From NCBI GenBank assembly GCA_977017645.1, contig OZ360249.1:33852001-33916000 (forward strand): DNA of 64,000 nucleotides. The letters are read 5' to 3'. The stretch is from Torpedo marmorata (lineage: Eukaryota). Positions 932 through 55,810 of this stretch are shown here, piece by piece (within the stretch, counting starts at the first letter, position 1; every line of letters begins with the position of its first letter). The notes below the pieces were generated by a model, which ran no database searches, had not been told where the DNA came from, and was given only the letters and a program-made list of their open reading frames with translations. Both the position numbers and the translations under genes were made by a program.

Positions 932-1768
932 CTTAACTAGATTTGAATGTAAGAATAGATGAAAATCACTGGAAAGAATTATGTAAATTAAGTATGACGA
1001 AGATTATTAATGTTAGATATAGACTAGTACAATATAATTTTTTTCATCAATTATATTTAACACTTAAAAAATTAAAGAAATTTAATCCGACATTATCAGG
1101 TTTATGTTTTAGATGTAATAAAGAGGAAGGTTCCTTTGTACATTCTACATGGTTTTGTCCAAAAGTTTATGATTTTTGGTTGAAAGTTAAAAATTTTTTA
1201 GATAAAGTATTTAAGATTACATTTCCAATGGATCCTATGATATTTTTGTTTGGAGATATTAGAAAGTTTAGCATTAAGAAGAAATTAAATATGTATCAAG
1301 TAGAATTTTTACGAATTGCTTTAGCTGTTTCAAAAAAATGCATTGCTATTACTTGGAAATCTGATTTAGATTTAGGATTAGAAAGATGGCATGCAGAACT
1401 TCGTTCGTGTATACCACTTGAAAAAATTACCTATAATTTACGTAATAAATATCATTTTTTCTTAAAAATTTGGAGCCCATATATGAGAGCTGTGTGTTTA
1501 AGGATTTGATGATCTTTGGATATCAGATCTACTGGCATGCTTGACCTCCACAATAGAATTAGTTTATAGATGGCATTCCCCTTACTCTATCCTTTTCTTT
1601 CTTTCTTTTTTCTATTTTCACTTTTTTTATTTTTTATATTTTTATTAGATTAGTGGGGTTGGGGAGGGAGAGAGGGTGAAAATGTATCACATGTATTTTG
1701 ATAATTTTATATTTTATCTTATGTATTTTGTGATTTTAAAAATTTAAATAAAATATTTTTTTTTTAAA
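932..1768 (+). mobile_element. 5'-truncated L1-clade LINE (ORF2 C-terminus 943-1509, 3'UTR, tail) with 12-bp TSD
   Basis: The ORF has the CCHC/zf-RVT motif CFRC-x8-H-x4-C. The 3'UTR has T-rich then G-rich tracts and AATAAA. Direct repeat AATCACAGATAA at 920-931 and 1769-1780. Confidence 0.92.
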
Positions 1769-3153: not shown

Positions 3154-3457
3154 AGTAAAATATGAAAGACTGCAGATACTGTAATTGAAGTAAAAACACA
3201 ATGCTGGAGAAACTCAGCATGTCAAACAGCGTACTTTATATAGCAAAGATAAAGATACATAACCAACATTTCCATCTTGAAACTTTCATCAAGATATGAG
3301 CAAAATGTGAGCAGGCGCCCGAACAAAATAGTGGGGGAGGGAGGGGCAGGGGGAGGAGCACAGTCCCACAAGCAGGAGGTAATAGGTGGGTAAGGGATGG
3401 AGAGCACACCAGCAAACAAAGGGAGGGGGGCGTGGCTCTGTGAATGGAGAGGGAAGG
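3154..3457 (-). mobile_element. Penelope-like pLTR fragment with degenerate hammerhead; 9-bp TSD
   Basis: Same module as 14100-14290. ATGCATAGT is repeated at 3145-3153 and 3458-3466. Confidence 0.85.
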
Positions 3458-12980: not shown

Positions 12981-13676
12981 CTATTGTGCTTGAATCTTTA
13001 TTTGTGGAAAACGATCTTGCTCAGAAAGGATACTGAGGGGTGGAGATAAATGAAATAATGATAATTCTAAAGTCCTCAAGCTTCATTCTAAGTTAACAGT
13101 TATTTTAATATGAGGAAAGGAAGATCGTGCTCTCCTCACGCTTTTCCTTCATATTTATCTTTATATTCTCTGGTGTCGGGATGGTACAGATGAAACTTCA
13201 GAGCCTAGATTCTTTCTTCACTTAGTGGGAACATATGAAAGGGCAGTTGAAGTGGCGCTGTGGAAAGAAAGTCAGGATAAAAGCAGGAATTGCCAAAACA
13301 TTTGACATATCAGGTGGCATCTGTGGAGACAGAAACAGAGGTAATGTTTGGGTTGGTGACCTTTCATCAAAAGTGGAAGGAACTAGAAAGTTGCTCTGTG
13401 TGCTGTTCCTGATTTTTTATATTCTGCTTTAGATTATTGCTGTGTCCAAGTTTTTGAATCTAATGAATTATTTGCATCTGTATTCATCCCATGATTTTTT
13501 TCCATATTTAAACATTCGTTAAAAAATCAAAGCTTTTACATAGGGTTGCATGTGGCTCCTGAGGCCGATTCCATAAGAACATAAGAAAGTAGGAACAGGA
13601 GTAGGCCAACCGGCCCATCGAGCCTGCTCCGCCATTCAATAAGATCATGGCTGATCTGATCAATCACCTAACTCCA

Positions 13677-14292
13677 TCCGGTGCTCCCTTTGTGGCAACT
13701 TATTTACTGCATCCGGTGCTCCCTTTGTGGCTTTCTCTACATCGGAGAGACCGGTCGTAGATTGGGAGACCGCTTTGCTGAGCACCTCCTCTCCGTCCGC
13801 AACAACAACGACCTCCCAGTAGCCAACCATTTCAATTCCGGGTCACACTCCCACACTCACATGTCTGTCCATGGCCTTATGTACTATCCCACCCAGACTA
13901 CCCGCAAATTGGAGGAACAACATCTCATATTCCGTCTCGGCACTCTCCAGCCAGATGGCATTAAAATTAACTTTTCTGCTTTCCACTAAACCTGCTTGTC
14001 GTTTCCTTCCCCTCCCCCTCACCTGTCCTTCCTGTTTTTTTCCACCCACCCAGCCATCCCTCCTCCCCCTCTTTGCTGCTGTCCCCTCCCTCCTTTCTCC
14101 ACCTATCATCTCCTGCCTTTGCCACCCCCCCCCCTTCCCCCCTCACTCTTTTGTTCGGATGCCTGCCGGCATTTTCTCATACTTTGATGAAGGGCTCAAG
14201 CCCGAAACGTCGGTTATGTATTTCTAGCTTTGCTACAATAAAGACACTGTTTGACCTGCTGAGTTTCTCCAGCATTTGTGTGCTTTTTACCG
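13677..14292 (+). mobile_element. Penelope-like element 3' fragment: GIY-YIG endonuclease (13681-13989) plus pLTR
   Basis: LIYCIRCSLCGFLYIGETGRRLGDRFAEH...VANHF...EQHLIFRLGTLQPDGIKINF. AACTCCA is repeated at 13670-13676 and 14293-14299. Confidence 0.92.
14178..14218 (+). ncRNA. Minimal type I hammerhead ribozyme motif (U3 core variant)
   Basis: catact-TTGATGA-a-gggc-tcaa-gccc-GAAA-C-GTC-ggttatg. Perfect 4-bp stem II, palindromic ACGT in place of stem III, predicted cleavage after 14211. Confidence 0.75.
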
Positions 14293-24375: not shown

Positions 24376-25624
24376 CAGTGATGTTGCAAAGTCAGGTTCA
24401 TTATTTGGAACCAAAATATTTTCTATCAGACAATGCTGCTTTATGTTATCCTGAAACTAATTACTTGCATTATCAAATGAAATGCTTTCTAAGCAAGCTC
24501 AAAATGAACACATTTATAGTCTTGGTACTAAACTCTCAGTCAGTACAATGGGACTGAACCTATGTGATTCGGTTTATTCCTTGACTTTCATGTTATCAAA
24601 ATGATGATAGCATTTTGTATCCAAGCCTCAAAGGTGATAGACATCTGACAATGAGCCATTATCAAACATTAGAATTCTTCTGTATTTGTTCCAGATGTCA
24701 TTTTCCTAATCTTAACAAAATCTATTGTAAAAGATAATGGAATGAAATTCATTCAATTCACTCCTCCCCCTGATCCCTTAGCAAAGCTGCACATCAGTGA
24801 TTCAATAGACATATACAGAAATCAGCACTCCGTGAAGTAATTTTATTCTATTGCTTGAAATTGTCACTACCCTTCACAACACTTAATTAATTAAAAGAAA
24901 TCTCCTCTAGTTTGAGTGATGAAGAATTCTGTGGTGGTTACAATGAACTTGACCTGTAATGCAGATACAGACACCAGCAACTCTATATGGTGGGATGATG
25001 TGTTAGTTCTGTAGCTGGTGGAATATGGGTGACAGTTTTAAATTGACCTCTTAGGGAGCTGCTGTGTGACCTCCAGAAAGATTGGCCACTTGATAGGATG
25101 ATTCCTGCTGTGCATTTGACTCCTGCAGCACTCTAAGCATCATAATCTTGCTCACGTCCCTTTGCCATTATGAAAGTCAGTTGGGTTTTAATAACGGGGG
25201 AATAGTCTGAAAAAAACATCATGACAGTGATCCCCCTCCCTTCACCCAGACGCAAGTATAAAGCAAGAAACAAGCTTTCCCCACTTCGACTGAAGGCACA
25301 GATTGATACTTGTCTTCTGTGTGCTGTGGAGTCAAAATTCATTATGTAAAAACTGTGCTAGAGAGAAATGGTAGAAACACTTAACCTTTACAGGCACTTA
25401 CACAGTCACATGGGACAAATAGACATAAGTGGCCAGTTTTTCCATTAAATAATTTTTGTGCTGTTTTACCCTTTTCCTGAAATGACAATTCTTAGTTCAC
25501 TTACTGGAAATCTCCTAATGCAACATGCTTGTACTCCATGACTGAATGCAGACTGGCCATTTCTGAATAAATTGATGGTAAGGAATATTAAGTCACACAC
25601 ATTAGAGTAACTCTCTCACTAAGT

Positions 25625-25872
25625 AAAACACGAAAGTCTGCAGACACCGTGGTTGAAGTAAAAACACAATGCTGAAGAAACTCAGCAGGTCAAACAGTAT
25701 ATGATATAGCAAAGATAAAGATACATAACTGACGTTTTGGGCTTGAGCCTTGATGACCTTGATGAAGGACCTTGATCTAGGGCTCAAGCCCAAAACATTG
25801 GTTATATATCTTTATCTTTACTATTAAAGTACACTGATTGATCTGCTGAGTTTCTCCAGCATTGTATTTTAA
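25625..25872. mobile_element. Inverted doublet of Penelope pLTRs with 10-bp TSD
   Basis: A minus pLTR then a plus pLTR meet at the hammerhead. CTCACTAAGT at 25615-25624 and 25873-25882. Confidence 0.85.
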
Positions 25873-39057: not shown

Positions 39058-40356
39058 TAGAATCAGAATTTATTGTCATGAACAAGTCATGAAATTCGGC
39101 GTTTTGCGGCAGCATCATAGTGCAAACATTCATATTATAACCATCTTACGACATTACTATAAAAAATATATATAAATAATAGTGCACGAAAAGTAAGGCA
39201 GTGTCTTTGGTTCAGTGATTATTCAGGAATCTGATGGCAGCGGGGAAGAAGCTGACTTTGTGCCGTTGAGTGCTCGTCTTTAGACTCCTGTACCTTTTTC
39301 CCGATGGTAGAAGAGTGAAGAGGGCATGGCCTCGGTGGTGGGGGTCTTTGAGGACAGAGGGGGCTTTTTTAAGACACCGCCTCTTGTAGAGGTCCTCGAT
39401 GGAGTGAAGTTTGTTGCCTGTGATGTCACAGGCCGAGTTAACAACCCTCTGGAGTTTGTTCTTGTCCTGAGATTTGGCGGCTCCATACCAGGCAGTGATG
39501 CAACCAGCCAGAATGCTCTCCACAGTACACCTGTAGAAGTTTACAAGAGTCTTCGATGACATACCGGATCTCCTTAGACAGCTCACAAAGTATAGCCACT
39601 GGCGAGCCTTCTTTGTGATTGTATCAACGTGGAGGCTCCAGGACAGATCCTCAGAGATGTTGACACCCAGGAATTTGAAGTTCTTGACCCTCTCCACTAC
39701 TGAGCCCTCAATGAGGACTGGGTCGTGTTCCCCTGACTTCCTCCTGAAGTCCACAATCATCTCCTTGGTTTTGCTGACGTTGAGCACAAGGTTGTTGTCA
39801 TTACACCGTTCAACGAGCTGATCTATCTCCCTCCTGTATGCTTCCTCATTGCCGTTTGTGATTCTGCCAACAACTGTGGTGTCATCGGCAAACTTGTAGA
39901 TGGCATTGGAATTGTGCCTGGCAACACAGTCATGGGTGTATAACGAGTAGAGCAGTGGGCTAAGCACGCATCCTTGGGGTGCGCCTGTGTTGATAATCAG
40001 TGAGGAGGAGATGTTGTTTCCAATTCGTACTGACTGTGGTCTTCCGATGAGAAAGTCAAGGATCCAGTTGCAGAGAGGGGTACAGAGGCCTATAGTTTGT
40101 AGCTTCTTGACCAGCACTGAGGGAATAATGGTATTGAAGGCCAAGCTGTCGACGATGAAGAGCAGCCGTATGTATGAATTGCTGTTTCGAGGTGATCCAG
40201 AGCTGAGTGGAGAGCCAGCGATATTGCATCTGCTGTGGAGCAATTATGACGATAGGCGAATTGTAGTGGGTCCAGATCTTTGCTTAGGTATGTGTTAATT
40301 CTGGCCATGACCAGCCTCTCAAAGCATTTAATCACAGTAGAAGTTAGTGCTACTGG
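39058..40356 (-). mobile_element. Rex1/Babar LINE, 5'-truncated RT (ORF 39212-40243) plus 3'UTR
   Basis: [55 protein letters not shown] and [13 protein letters not shown]. Frameshift to the upstream part 40090-40335. Confidence 0.93.
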
Positions 40357-46170: not shown

Positions 46171-46737
46171 TCCACTTTCATCCAGCAATACTGATTCTTA
46201 ACAGTGGCATCTGCGACCTGATGTGAAATGCTAAGAAAATGACAGAGGGATAGAAACACTGAATGTTATCTTAAAATACTGGTAGCAGTTATGAATAAAT
46301 AGACAAAGGCAAAATACCAGATGCAGGTAATCAGAATAAAAAATATTGGAATAAGGAGATCAAGTATCTTCTGGAAAGAAAGAAACAGAATTAATGTTCC
46401 AGGAAGAATGTGCATTATATCGAACAGATCAGCAATTTTGTGCCAGTGAATGAACATTTTTTTGAAAATAACAGGTCAAAAACAATGTGAAGTATGAACA
46501 GGGTTAAATTTTCTTTGGAAGGAGCACAGAGAAACAATGGGTCGAATGGGGCAATGAATACCTTTTTGCCACTTGAATTAATGGAAATTCCTTCCTTCAG
46601 GTGGATATAAAGTGAGCACAGATGTAAGTCCAGTAATATTTCTCAGTTAAACATTTGAATCCATCCATATAATTGCTTTGTACATGATATGAATGGTGGA
46701 ACAGATTTGAAGGGCTAAATGAACTATTTATTATCCA

Positions 46738-46845
46738 CTTTGATGAAGGGCTCAAGTCCGAAACGTCGGTTATGTATTTCTACCTTTGCTACATAAAAGA
46801 CACTGTTTGACCTGCTGAAGTTTCTCCAGCATTTGTGTTTTTTAC
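46738..46845 (+). mobile_element. 108-bp solo Penelope pLTR starting at the hammerhead core; 10-bp TSD
   Basis: TTATTATCCA at 46728-46737 and 46846-46855. The insert begins ctttgatgaagggctcaagtccgaaacgtcgg. Confidence 0.9.
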
Positions 46846-47945
46846 TTATTATCCAGTATCACTGTGAACTGCCGAAGTTCGCTGTTCTGTGGCCAGGACA
46901 AGTGCAACCTTTGATTCTCTCTTGGAACATGCGATGATTTTGAGCTCCCACTTATGATTCACAATATTTTTCTGCTGTCTATGTTTTGGCACACTGTTAA
47001 ATTGATTATTTGGTCTCTACAGCTGTTTAATTTAGGTATCGACTAATTTTACTTTACAATTCAATTTATTAGTAACCATGTTGCTATTTAGGAAATAACT
47101 GAAATAAATGGAGCTCATTTTTATGGACTGATTACCAGCCATATTTGGATACATGGATTGTGAAATATTTCTCTGTTAAACATTTGAATTTTGAAACATT
47201 TCACCCAGCACTATACAATTAGGATAAATATTTTCCATGATTAAAAAATGTGGTTTGAGGCACAGAAAATTATTATCTGGGAATAATGTGATTTGGAGTT
47301 GTGTATATTTGTAGTTGATTGCAAATTGAATAATTATTACCCAAGTAATTTTTAACTGAACACATAAAATTGTCACTTCTCACATTAATGTGTTTCTATT
47401 GAAAACGTAGATTTTGTGAGGCAAGATTAGTGTTGGCAAAGAGAATAAAGTGCTTTTTACAAAACAGTTGGTTGACAGGATAATTCTACTAGTTTGAAGA
47501 TCCATAACTTATGAATAATGAAGGCCTAATATGAGTATCTTATAAGGATGTACCTATTAGATGATAATCTCCACAATTAACTATCAGCTGTCCTGCATTC
47601 TCCTTACTCTATTACTAATTCATTTAGACTGGGAAATATATTGGCATTTGAATCGTGCAGTTTAGCTGAAAAACATATGGAATTATTTATATTATCATTG
47701 TTCAGCCAATTAAAATATTTTTATCCACACTTCTGAGGTAAGCATGCCAGTCACCAACAATTAGTAAAGTCGTAAATGATTGGATACAGGAATAAGAAGA
47801 TATGGAATGAAAAATGGAAATTCACGAATCCTATGGAAAAAAATTAGGTTTGGCTACTGATAGGAGTAAATGCCATCCACTTACATTATAAGCGTGCTAC
47901 ATATCATTGCACATGGAAATACTTAGATCAGTAATGCATTTAAGA

Positions 47946-48507
47946 AGTAAATCACGAAAATCTGTAGACACCGTGGTTGAAGTAAAAAACACAAAATGCT
48001 GGAGAAGCTCAGCAGGTCAAAGAGTCTCCTTTATGTAGCAAAGGTAGAAATACATAACCAACGTTTCGGGCTTGAGCCCTTCATCAAGGTATGAGAGAAT
48101 GCCGGCAGGCATCCGAACAAAAGGGTAGGTGGGGTGGCAAAGGCAGGAGATGATAGGTGGATGAAGGGAGGGAGGAGACAGCAGCAATGAGGGGGAAGAG
48201 GGATGGCTGGGTGGGTAAGGGGGAAGGGAGGGGAGAACTGGAAAGACAGGAAAGGGGAGGGGAAAGAAAAGGCGAGCAAGTTTAGCAGAAAGCAGAGAAA
48301 TCAATGTTAATGCCATTTGACTGGAGAGTGCCCAGACGGAAGATAAGGTGTTGTTCCTCCAATCTGCGGGTGGTCAGGGTGGGATAGTGCAAAAGGCCAT
48401 GGACAGACATGTGAGTCTGGGAGTGTGACTCAGAATTAAAATGGTTGGCTATTGGGAGGTCGCTGTGGTTGCGGACGGAGAGGAGGTGCTTAGTGAAGCG
48501 ATCTCCC
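47946..48507 (-). mobile_element. Penelope-like 3' fragment (GIY-YIG C-terminal half plus pLTR with hammerhead at 48053-48093)
   Basis: LGDRFTKHLLSVRN...IANHF...EEQHLIFRLGTLQSNGINIDF. Hammerhead cataccTTGATGAagggctcaagcccGAAAcGTTggttatg. Confidence 0.9.
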
Positions 48508-49049
48508 AATGCACTTATCATGGTAATGCACTTATCATGGTTATAAGACCCAAAGCTTAGTCTTTCAATACAGCACATCAATTTCTTCTAATTTTCTGTA
48601 ACTTAATACAGAGACCAGTTGAGCAGAAAGTGCATCATATTCTGACCTGGAATTTTAAAAGGTTGTATGCTCTAAGAAGATCAGAAAATATATAAAAATA
48701 ACAACACAGTTACAATGTGTGACTTTCATTTAATAAATTGTTGCTGAATTCAATAAAAAATGAAATTTAATTTGAAGTCTGTCAGCTCTGACCTGCTTAA
48801 CTGAAGCAAATCTTTTGTAGCTGCAAAGCAGATCAATAGAACTGCTGGAATGTTACTTTCGCTTATTTAAACCTTCACAAATCTACAAATTTTGGTATTG
48901 ACCTGAATGAATGGGCATTTAGGGCCTTATCACAATATAATGTGTTGGATGTAAATAATGTACATTATGGATTATGACCAGGTAAATTCTTTTAATGATG
49001 AGGGAGAGAGTAAACAGAGCGATACTGACCTGCTCAGCAGATATTGTCA

Positions 49050-51892: not shown

Positions 51893-53271
51893 TTGTGCAA
51901 TACACAAAATTCAGAATGTAGAAACTCAGCAGGTCACGCAGCATCCATAGGAAGAAAAAGGCAATTAACGTTTTGGGCCTGAACCCTTCATCGGAATGTG
52001 GTAAAACAGTTAGATTCCTGAAAAAAAGGGGGACAGGGGGGAGAAGGAGAGGAGTGGAGGGGAGGGGGGGGGAAGGGTAGGAGCACAGGCTAACAGGAAA
52101 TATGTGGAGTGAAACACTAAAATCTGCAGACACTGTGGTTGACTTAAAAACACAATGCTGGAGAATCTCAGCAGGTCAAACAGCGCACTTTATATAGCAA
52201 AGGTAAAGATACATAACCAAGGTTTTGGGCGTGAGCCCTTCATCAAGGTATTTGCAAAATGTACGCAGGTGCCTGAATAAAATTGTAGGGGGAGGGGCAG
52301 GAGAAGAGCACAGGTCCACAGGCAAGAGGTAATAGCTAGATAAGGGAGGGAGGGCACAAGATAAAATAGGGGGAGTGTGTATAGCTCTGAATGGATACAG
52401 GTGGGAGAGAGGAGGAGAAATAAGCTGAGAAGTAACAGGGGAAGAGGGCAGAAGGGTTGGAAGGCTAGCTCTTAGAAGAATAGGAGAAGGAAGTATGCCA
52501 CCAAAGACTCCATAAATTTCTACAAGTGTACCGTGGAGAGCTTTCTGACTGGTTGCATCACTGTCTGGTATGGAGGTGCCAATGCGCAGGACAGAAAAAG
52601 GCTACAGAGGGTTGTAAACTTGGCCTATGCCATCATGGGCATCAGTCTTCACTCCATCAAGGACATCTTTAAGAGACAGTGCCACAAGAAAGTAGTCCCT
52701 ATTATCAAGGATCCTCACCACCCAGGCTATGCCCTTTTCTCACTGCTACCATCAGGAAGAAGGTAGAGCCTGAAGACGCACCCCCAACATCACAAAAACA
52801 GCTTCTTCCCCCCGCCATAAGATTTTTGTACGGACAATTAACCTATAGACACTACCTCACTTTTTTCTCTAGTTGCACTAATTATTTATTTTTAAATATT
52901 GTATTTACGGAACTGTAATTTATTGTAAAACCGCTGCCGCAAAACACAAATTTTGTAACATATGTTCATGACAACAAATCTGATTCTGAATTCTGAAGGG
53001 AAGGGGATTGGGAGCTGGAGGAAAGGAGGAAGAATGGTTGGGAAATATCCCCATTGCAAGAATGAAGATACATAACCAACATTTCGGACTTGAGCCCTTC
53101 TTTGAAGTTTGGGCGCCTGCCTAAATTTTACTCATACCTTGATGAAGGGCTTAAGCCCGAAACATTGGTTATGTACCTTTGCTATATAAAATACACTATT
53201 TGACGTGCTGAGTTTCTCCAGCATTGTGTTTTTACTTCAATCGCGGTGTCTGCAGACTTTCGTGTTTTACT
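51893..53271. mobile_element. Nest of Penelope pLTRs (two families, four degenerate hammerheads)
   Basis: Minus pLTRs at 51893-52108 and 52108-52490. Inverted pair at 53065-53271 with a plus hammerhead at 53133-53173. Confidence 0.8.
52494..52995 (+). mobile_element. Rex1-like LINE 3' end inserted in the pLTR nest
   Basis: ORF 52533-52766 reads ESFLTGCITVWYGGANAQDRKRLQRVV...LLPSGRR. (attctg)n tail. Confidence 0.88.
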
Positions 53272-54896: not shown

Positions 54897-55810
54897 CCAT
54901 ATATTTCGGCGTATGTCGAGTCTTGAAACCCTCAAAAATCTCTCAAAAAATGGGGGTTGACTTATACGCCAGATATACTTTTGAGACCTTAAAATCAGCT
55001 CAAAAACTACTCCACGCTGATTCGGCGTATAAGTCGACCCTTAAAACCCCGATTCTGCGTATAAGTCGACCCATGAAAAACCGATTCGGCGTATAGGTCG
55101 ATGCTGGAAGCACCTCCCCACCGCCGGCGCCGCCACTTTCGACACCTCCCCACCGCCGGGCGCCGCCATAAACCACCCAGACATTCTACAATTGTAGAGC
55201 CCGAGGTCCCCGCTCCTACCCGGGAGCCTGAGGTCGCCACTCCTGCTCGGGAGAACGAGGTCGCCGCTCCTGCCCGGGAGAATGAGGTCGCCGCTACTAC
55301 CCGGGAGAACGAGCTCCCTGCACCTGCTCGGGAAAACGAGTCCCCGCACCTACTCGGGAGAATGACTTTGCCGCTCCTGCCCGGGAAAACGAGGTCCCCG
55401 CACCTGCTCGGGAGCCGACACGTACCGTGGTTCCTGCACCGAGCACACTTGGGCAGCGAGGCGACTTCTTCAATGAGGACAGCACCGCACCCGATGTGGA
55501 GAATGGAGTTGCCCGTCGCCGACTCTGGCTGCAGCTGAAGCTGAAGACTGGGACCCAGCTCCGTTTGGCATCTTCCCGGCCAGTAGCAAAGGTTTTTTGT
55601 ACTTTTTTTTTTACTTACTTGCTTAATTTACAGCTTTGTTACTTGGCGATTGGGGTGTTGTAACAAATTTTGGGTTGTTGCTGGGAGGCCTGGACAGCCT
55701 GAAAATTGGGGGTCAACTTATACGCCGGATATACAATAAAACCATTAAAATTAGGCTGAAAAAGGGGGGTCGACTAATCTGCGAGTCGACTTATACGCCA
55801 AAATATACAG
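54897..55810. mobile_element. Tc2/pogo-like non-autonomous element with internal VNTR
   Basis: TA|CCATATATTTCGGCGTAT ... ATACGCCAAAATATACAG|TA, with repeated subterminal gtcgacttatacgc motifs. Confidence 0.8.
55203..55416 (+). repeat. 27-bp GC-rich minisatellite, about 8 copies
   Basis: Unit gaggtcgccgctcctgcccgggagaac with variants. Confidence 0.9.

Follow-up and report, generated by a model that had tools for sequence, protein, structure and literature searches.

Minimal hammerhead ribozymes of Penelope-like elements (PLEs) are the closest described systems. As given by Cervera 2014, these are type I hammerheads in the pLTR with an unpaired base after A9, a G10.1-C11.1 pair and GAAA; positions 15.2-16.2 form a palindrome, loop III is absent, a full element has two hammerheads, and most lie in truncated, dispersed copies. 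The motif analysed here resembles them in all of these respects. It differs from the published consensus CUGANGA in that U3 faces G8, a form that dominates the genome, and every minimal-hammerhead feature tested was present except C3 and the Watson-Crick 3-8 pair. A compensated U3-A8 variant is discussed in the text of Cervera 2014, whose Fig. S3 has 56 rows, none from a cartilaginous fish. A precedent for U3·G8 is found in 1 of the 56, Saccoglossus kowalevskii (1), which the accessible text leaves without comment. Like the motif here, the Saccoglossus hammerhead reads UUGANGA with G8, is associated with a PLE and stands for a consensus family, but its stems and host are different. No paper on U3·G8 or on shark or ray PLE hammerheads turned up in a search of the accessible literature, and the accessible portions of PMC7229834, PMC6765202, PMC9608096 and bioRxiv 10.64898/2026.07.22.740005 held nothing on a U3·G8 core.

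The PAc hammerhead, from a Poseidon element of Anolis carolinensis, is reported to be assisted by protein, and insertion in vitro is reported to proceed without it (Frangieh et al. 2024, PMC11167929). As in PAc, the hammerhead here lies in a pLTR upstream of an internal start of reverse transcription, uncut RNA would be the insertion template, and the cut site does not stand out by its ends: no RNA ends were seen there in PAc, and genomic 5′ ends have no peak there in the present family. PAc has a canonical C3-G8 core, belongs to the Poseidon clade and has its ORF start inside stem II (PMC11167929), whereas in the present element the ORF begins 150 nt downstream of the cut site and the linker zinc finger is a mark of the Neptune type. 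Neptune-clade EN+ PLEs, as described in Craig et al. 2021 (PMC8557442), share with the present element a single ORF with RT and C-terminal GIY-YIG domains, a CX2-5CxxC linker, CCHH in the EN, partial tandems, an inverted truncated partner and a tail; the hammerhead core variant sets the present element apart from that description.

The host element and its motifs in the window

The earlier note on the window (the whole stretch of 64,000 nucleotides that was analysed) had placed the motifs in a Penelope family. RT and GIY-YIG similarity and the anatomy of the window copies (Table 1) agreed with this placement, and from protein motifs and anatomy alone the host is assigned as a very abundant Neptune-type EN+ PLE. 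The genomic copy L126 has a 1,164-aa frame from the start codon with YIDD and a GIY-YIG-type motif, in a single ORF with GIY-YIG at the C terminus. A linker zinc finger, C-x4-C-x2-C, precedes the EN and matches CX2-5CxxC, and the CCHH of the EN is provided by two Cys in the GIY-YIG core and two His further on. The hammerhead lies about 200 nt 3′ of the stop codon. The closest named proteins were from rays and sharks (elasmobranchs), with 56-75% identity, which points to a cartilaginous fish as the host.

When the genome was searched with an in-frame piece, 100 matches were scored: the self-match and 99 at 94-96% identity. Several of 20 loci inspected were partial tandems in which each pLTR has its own hammerhead, at a spacing of 3.6-4.8 kb, and direct repeats ended 105-145 nt after U4 in 10/10 tandem copies examined. 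The pLTRs from partial tandems, the inverted 5′-truncated partner and the tail that mark such elements were all present. The N-terminal part of the ORF (L076:2251-5889, L121, L125, L126) has a variable number of ~19-residue Ala/Pro-rich repeats, which accounts for the range of unit lengths. The longer window copy has a one-base frameshift 3′ of the RT thumb. A frameshift at 22/25 sites of one match set was dismissed as query bias at a C run, being seen at 0/22 in other loci. A non-LTR retrozyme, with non-coding short tandem units that each contain a hammerhead, was also rejected, as the copies in the window are scattered and represent the 3′ end of an element that codes for protein.

Table 1. 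Coordinates of the features of the window discussed in the text
Feature	Position	Strand	Remarks
5′-truncated Penelope-like copy: end of EN coding region and pLTR	13698-14290	+	95% to L126; holds the 14178-14218 hammerhead
Open frame with GIY-YIG endonuclease fragment	13672-13989	+	Pfam PF01541, E 2.6e-4, just below curated cut-off
Minimal type I hammerhead motif	14178-14218	+	U3 (14184) opposite G8 (14189)
Conserved pLTR box 3′ of hammerhead	14253-14274	+	common to older families; hammerhead-independent anchor
Longer 5′-truncated copy: RT, linker, EN, pLTR, tail	32074-33931	-	94.7% to L126
Open frame with RT domain	32730-33884	-	Pfam RVT_1, E 7.2e-6, below curated cut-off
Hammerhead copy	32184-32224	-	U3 at 32218
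Inverted 5′-truncated partner, internal deletion	33931-34486	+	with 32074-33931, a classic PLE inverted insertion
Hammerhead copy	34368-34408	+	U3 at 34374
14-bp direct repeat flanking inverted insertion	32066-32079 (left), 34477-34490 (right)	+	read as target-site duplication
Short copy, 5′-truncated inside stem I	46737-46847	+	U3 at 46740
Older U3 copy	47943-48510	-	85% to L126; hammerhead 48053-48093, GUU triplet, U3 at 48087
Decayed U3 copy (82%)	53107-53267	+	U3 at 53139
Decayed U3 copy (75%)	52112-52375	-	T at position 3, about 52246
Decayed U3 copy (73%)	3158-3430	-	U3 at 3292
Fold-back, two pLTR ends joined at hammerhead	25621-25870	.	flanking 8-bp direct repeat; T at position 3
Decayed copy, older related family	about 51960-52000	-	C at position 3, short form without inserted T

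In the first intact motif, stem I is formed by 14178-14183 (CATACT) and 14212-14218 (GGTTATG) with a bulge at 14214, and the core TTGATGA is followed by an unpaired A and stem II, GGGC-TCAA-GCCC (14192-14203). GAAA, CG and TC stand 3′ of stem II, and the predicted cut falls at 14211/14212. Stem III had been read as shrunk to the palindrome ACGT, correctly so at 14207-14210. The five intact and four decayed copies listed in the earlier note were all present with T at position 3; its statement that every copy has T holds within the U3 lineage but not for the older relative with C. The recurrence is not due to chance: exact matches to a 28-mer of the motif numbered 68,421 genome-wide (6.2 Gb), and its reversed control had 0. 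Hammerhead models were absent from all 18 matches of an Rfam scan of the window at E<=5, and contexts of 131-141 nt, when folded, neither reached a significant z-score nor returned the hammerhead fold.

Inverted insertions carry long flanking direct repeats, of 14 bp and 8 bp in the two window examples. Many short fold-backs, L010 and L172 among them, join at or near the hammerhead; the centre of another, from an older related family (30942-31117), is the start-codon region (30999-31038 matches L126) and not the hammerhead. The window also holds unrelated non-LTR RT fragments at 39212-40243 (-) and 937-1509 (+) (RVT_1 E 3.6e-18, zf-RVT) and tandem repeats at 27662-28061 and 55179-55440 with periods of 50 nt and 27 nt, the 27-nt array sitting inside overlapping open frames.

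Position 3 in amplified copies and its probable origin

With loop II and N7 left free, exact matches genome-wide numbered 92,379 for U3 and 1,982 for C3. A strict CUGANGA search, as had been foreseen, misses the motif and would recover about 2% (1,982/94,361), so that CUGANGA descriptors overlook about 98% of this motif class in this genome. In the young family, defined by the same 27 bases downstream, 1,225/69,646 copies had a base other than U at position 3; among the first 100 non-U matches listed, counted by eye, 50 had A, 28 C and 22 G. C3 is thus present in about 0.5% of the young family and is rarer than A among non-U, which indicates mutation noise. Decay of C3 copies to U3 was rejected on the same rarity of C and because position 3 is in no CpG.

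A sample independent of the hammerhead was obtained by picking copies by the downstream box only (227 matches; 49 unclassified were dropped and 178 classified). Among those reaching stem I, U3 was found in 70/70 copies of subfamily group Y, 23/24 of M and 15/16 of P/Q/R (108/110 in total), and position 3 was mixed among 10 box-picked copies of O2/A1. G8 was present in 70/70, 22/24 and 15/16 of the Y, M and P/Q/R copies, respectively, and the U3-A8 variant described for Cercyon PLEs (Perreault 2011, PMC3088659) was therefore rejected. No U3-A8 subfamily was seen in 464 kb, where one A8 copy is a CpG-decayed N7=C copy. T was the base at position 3 of the hammerheads after long ORFs across the 40 loci examined; at two loci there was no hammerhead among the matches listed.

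The U3/C3 counts and the box-picked sample thus bear out the contention that U3 is a family state and not decay, and the youngest long-ORF copies carry U3 rather than the C3 that would have spoken against it. The description of the core as fixed at UUGAUGA was overstated, however: several U3 subfamilies, including the youngest-looking, have N7=A, and the fixed part is UUGANGA.

The family was also present in contigs of five differently labelled organisms, among which N7, 2.1 and 11.1 vary; no position 3 variants were found among the rows listed, at a 10% or a 2% threshold. This suggests that the U3 lineage is older than the split of the five, if the labels denote distinct species. In one organism (run X4, compared over L126:3700-4050), N7=C made up about 45% of depth compared with a minor share here, which points to the expansion of a different U3 subfamily in that organism.

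An age series was built from 314 copies (47 unclassified), many of them pattern-picked, with classes set by flank and age taken as non-CpG divergence. C3 was the state of A1 (15%) and O2 (12-13%, with a few U3 copies), and all remaining classes had U3: Q (12%), Rr (7%), P2 (7%), M (6%), P1 (5%), Y3 (5%), and Y2 and Y1 (1.3%). The tabulation of position 3 against element age that had been proposed therefore gave C3 in the older subfamilies (12-15%) and U3 in every younger one. In a tree of the non-ribozyme flanks, A1/O2 stood apart from all other classes (99/98), as did M/Y (100/100), and little else was resolved. Canonical C3, U3·G8 and still weaker forms thus follow one another in a dated series within one lineage, with more than 90,000 exact copies, in which cleavage rate could be measured against amplification success with natural sequences; it is a good natural test of the role of Penelope hammerheads.

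The C3 forms read ...AT(A/T)CC followed by TGA, and the U3 forms read ...AT(A/T)CC-T followed by TGA and are one base longer. C3 classes comprised 13 short, 0 long and 13 unscored copies, and U3 classes 122 long, 5 short and 34 unscored. The probable source of U3 is a single one-base T insertion and not C-to-U substitution; after the insertion, we infer, the old C3 became C2.1 in stem I, pairing with G1.1. Insertion of a C followed by C3U was rejected, as an amplified long-C3 form is absent: long forms with C3 numbered 84 genome-wide (with an N7 mix as in U3 families) and 13/508 in the oldest N7=C class, a level expected from back mutation. A register in which C3 is kept and U inserted after it fits the older CC-U-UGA forms but not the youngest ACU-U-UGA, and is disfavoured because the youngest forms would then have A opposite G1.1. 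The motif would then be a natural example of register slip, and not substitution, exchanging a core base of a ribozyme, an origin we regard as likely.

The last C3 family, O2 (e.g. L321, L322, L324), has a GUU triplet and a single core-adjacent stem I pair in the C3 register, and its hammerhead may have worked poorly even before the appearance of U3. For A1 and O2-C3, folding of class majorities predicted a core strand that pairs across the cut site, a state more stable than the open form by about 5 kcal/mol. The predicted gap was 0-0.9 in O2-U3, Q, P, Rr, M and Y1 and 4.1 in Y2/Y3, the exception being the largest and most abundant subfamily.

Loss of the predicted ancestral misfold in the first U3 subfamilies is what would be expected if U3·G8 were near neutral, with dimeric or protein-bound molecules cutting about as well as C3 forms and a better stem I offsetting the wobble. 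Retention of U3 through nine subfamilies and in the five differently labelled organisms, and the U3·G8 family of Saccoglossus, point the same way. The return of the predicted misfold in the most abundant subfamily does not, nor does a mutational scan in which a C-G to G-C swap alone is reported to rescue the 3-8 pair (PMC9901934), and near neutrality is considered quite unlikely.

Constancy of the core and changes in the stems

Changes were counted on the majorities of nine U3 subfamilies placed on an assumed subfamily tree. The 11 core sites (position 3 and ten conserved) had 0 changes, while N7 changed three times, loop II once, 11.1 once (G·U in Y1) and position 17 twice (C/U). The flanks of the same repeat had 39 changes in 60 ungapped columns (0.65 per column) and 28 gapped columns; the Poisson probability of such core constancy was 0.0008 at the flank rate and 0.04 at the conserved-box rate. 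U4 G5 A6 N7 G8 A9, G12 A13 A14, A15.1-U16.1 and the NUH triplet were invariant in the nine majorities, with N7 free. Helices I and II were paired in 85% and 98% of cells, and the unpaired base after A9, G10.1-C11.1 and palindromic helix III were present, 10.1-11.1 being G·U in Y1.

The earlier note had looked to stem II for covariation. No subfamily-level double change was found there within the U3 lineage (in older C3 families, among matches listed, the fourth pair is U·G or U-A); covariation was found in stem I instead. Among 49 distinct real copies, pair 2.3 was A-U in 29 and U-A in 13, and pair 2.6 was C-G in 20, U-A in 16 and unpaired in 13. The switches at 2.3 and 2.6 exceeded all 500 shuffles and all slid controls, whereas the number of pairs with double changes was not above shuffles (168/500). 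These compensatory changes amount to only two events on the assumed tree, and the copy tree resolved no more than two relevant branches.

Because the other core bases are constant, N7 is free and stem I has double changes, the hammerhead fold appears to have been under selection after U3 arose. The pattern used to select most P/Q/R copies presupposes the core, and only 16 were chosen independently of it. Counting against selection, Y adds U2.1·G1.1 and Y1 adds G10.1·U11.1, which looks like erosion, so that Y1 has three wobbles around the core (2.1-1.1, 3-8 and 10.1-11.1). Y1 (L122, L124, L126, L127, L129) is young and common among long-ORF copies, with N7=A and C11.1U; its 5′ and 3′ repeats can be nearly identical, with as few as 1 difference in 415 bases (L122).

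If the ribozyme had broken in one master element and hitchhiked as a dead relic, its conservation would be due to chance and ascertainment. The motif is indeed short, with few independent changes, many older copies were pattern-picked, and C-to-U changes have accrued progressively at 2.1 and 11.1. Such a relic would hardly keep 11 core sites unchanged beside flanks with 0.65 changes per column and many indels; moreover, the sample picked independently of the hammerhead gave the same majorities, and stem I gained pairs after U3 arose. We consider a dead relic very improbable.

The predicted cut site, the copied template and a possible role

The 3′ ends of the insertions lie about 110 nt past the predicted cut, which places the cut site within the copied RNA. 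A copy starting at G1.1 should carry foreign sequence at position 17. The base before G1.1 (position 17) was a purine in 289 and a pyrimidine in 65,295 of 65,584 copies; 30 purine copies inspected comprised 14 point mutations and 16 truncations or junctions, none of them full length. No peak of 5′ ends was found at the cut site, where about 0.5% of young copies begin (doubled for pyrimidine flanks) against a background of about 0.3% per position, itself from a small sample (17/84 copies over about 70 nt). In copies that join the pLTR to the ORF, the upstream hammerhead was intact in 12/13, and the 5′ repeat reached 53-1,500 nt upstream of U4 in 10/10 tandems. Because copies span the cut site, upstream hammerheads are intact and tandems extend upstream, the templates would have been uncut, or religated, when copied. 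These figures cover the U3 family, and canonical C3 elements are expected to read through too; since the canonical anole element does so, read-through alone is no proof of attenuation.

The missing peak of 5′ ends would also be expected if the motif no longer cuts and its fold is kept as a structural signal, for protein binding or for folding of the template near the start of reverse transcription. Loss of the 3-8 Watson-Crick pair and the three wobbles of the youngest subfamily favour such a signal, as do the low activity, reported in qualitative terms, of single mutants in the CUGA region (PMC9901934), the dispensability of PAc cleavage for insertion in vitro (PMC11167929) and the amplification of Naiads without canonical hammerheads. 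Yet the changes all fall where a working ribozyme can bear them (N7, loop II, C17/U17, G-C to G·U), and G8, G12 and U16.1 stayed fixed although G12 and ACGT, as CpG hot spots, do decay in single copies. A purely structural role is accordingly judged unlikely, if deserving of serious attention.

We lean, with no great assurance, towards a slow, conditional ribozyme with U opposite G8 in all young subfamilies, a core probably created by insertion. Cutting would require either pairing with a second copy, through dimers formed at ACGU as put forward after Cervera 2014, or help from the protein of the element. The inserted U would have taken position 3 and pushed the old C3 into stem I opposite G1.1, repairing stem I and removing the predicted misfold at the cost of the C3-G8 pair; a reduced rate is suggested by the CUGA-region mutants described in PMC9901934. 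Lower cutting could be tolerated, as reverse transcription would begin some 110 nt 3′ of the cut site and would depend on RNA left uncut. If tandem transcripts are still cut to some extent, this would release an mRNA whose 5′ end lies 150 nt ahead of the start codon, and on this proposal the catalytic bases stay fixed because of that cutting.

A bolder form of the slow-ribozyme reading is offered tentatively, as we think it rather doubtful: the register shift rebuilt the motif, exchanging C3-G8 for a repaired stem I and yielding a low-rate or protein-gated switch, and this damped form may have displaced the canonical one in a group of rays or sharks, uncut RNA being the template.

Short head-to-tail arrays of hammerhead units with 36-76 nt spacing were also observed (L225; G000 C2:245852958-245853141; G000 C1:5814638-5814711); arrays so spaced would permit dimer folding in cis.
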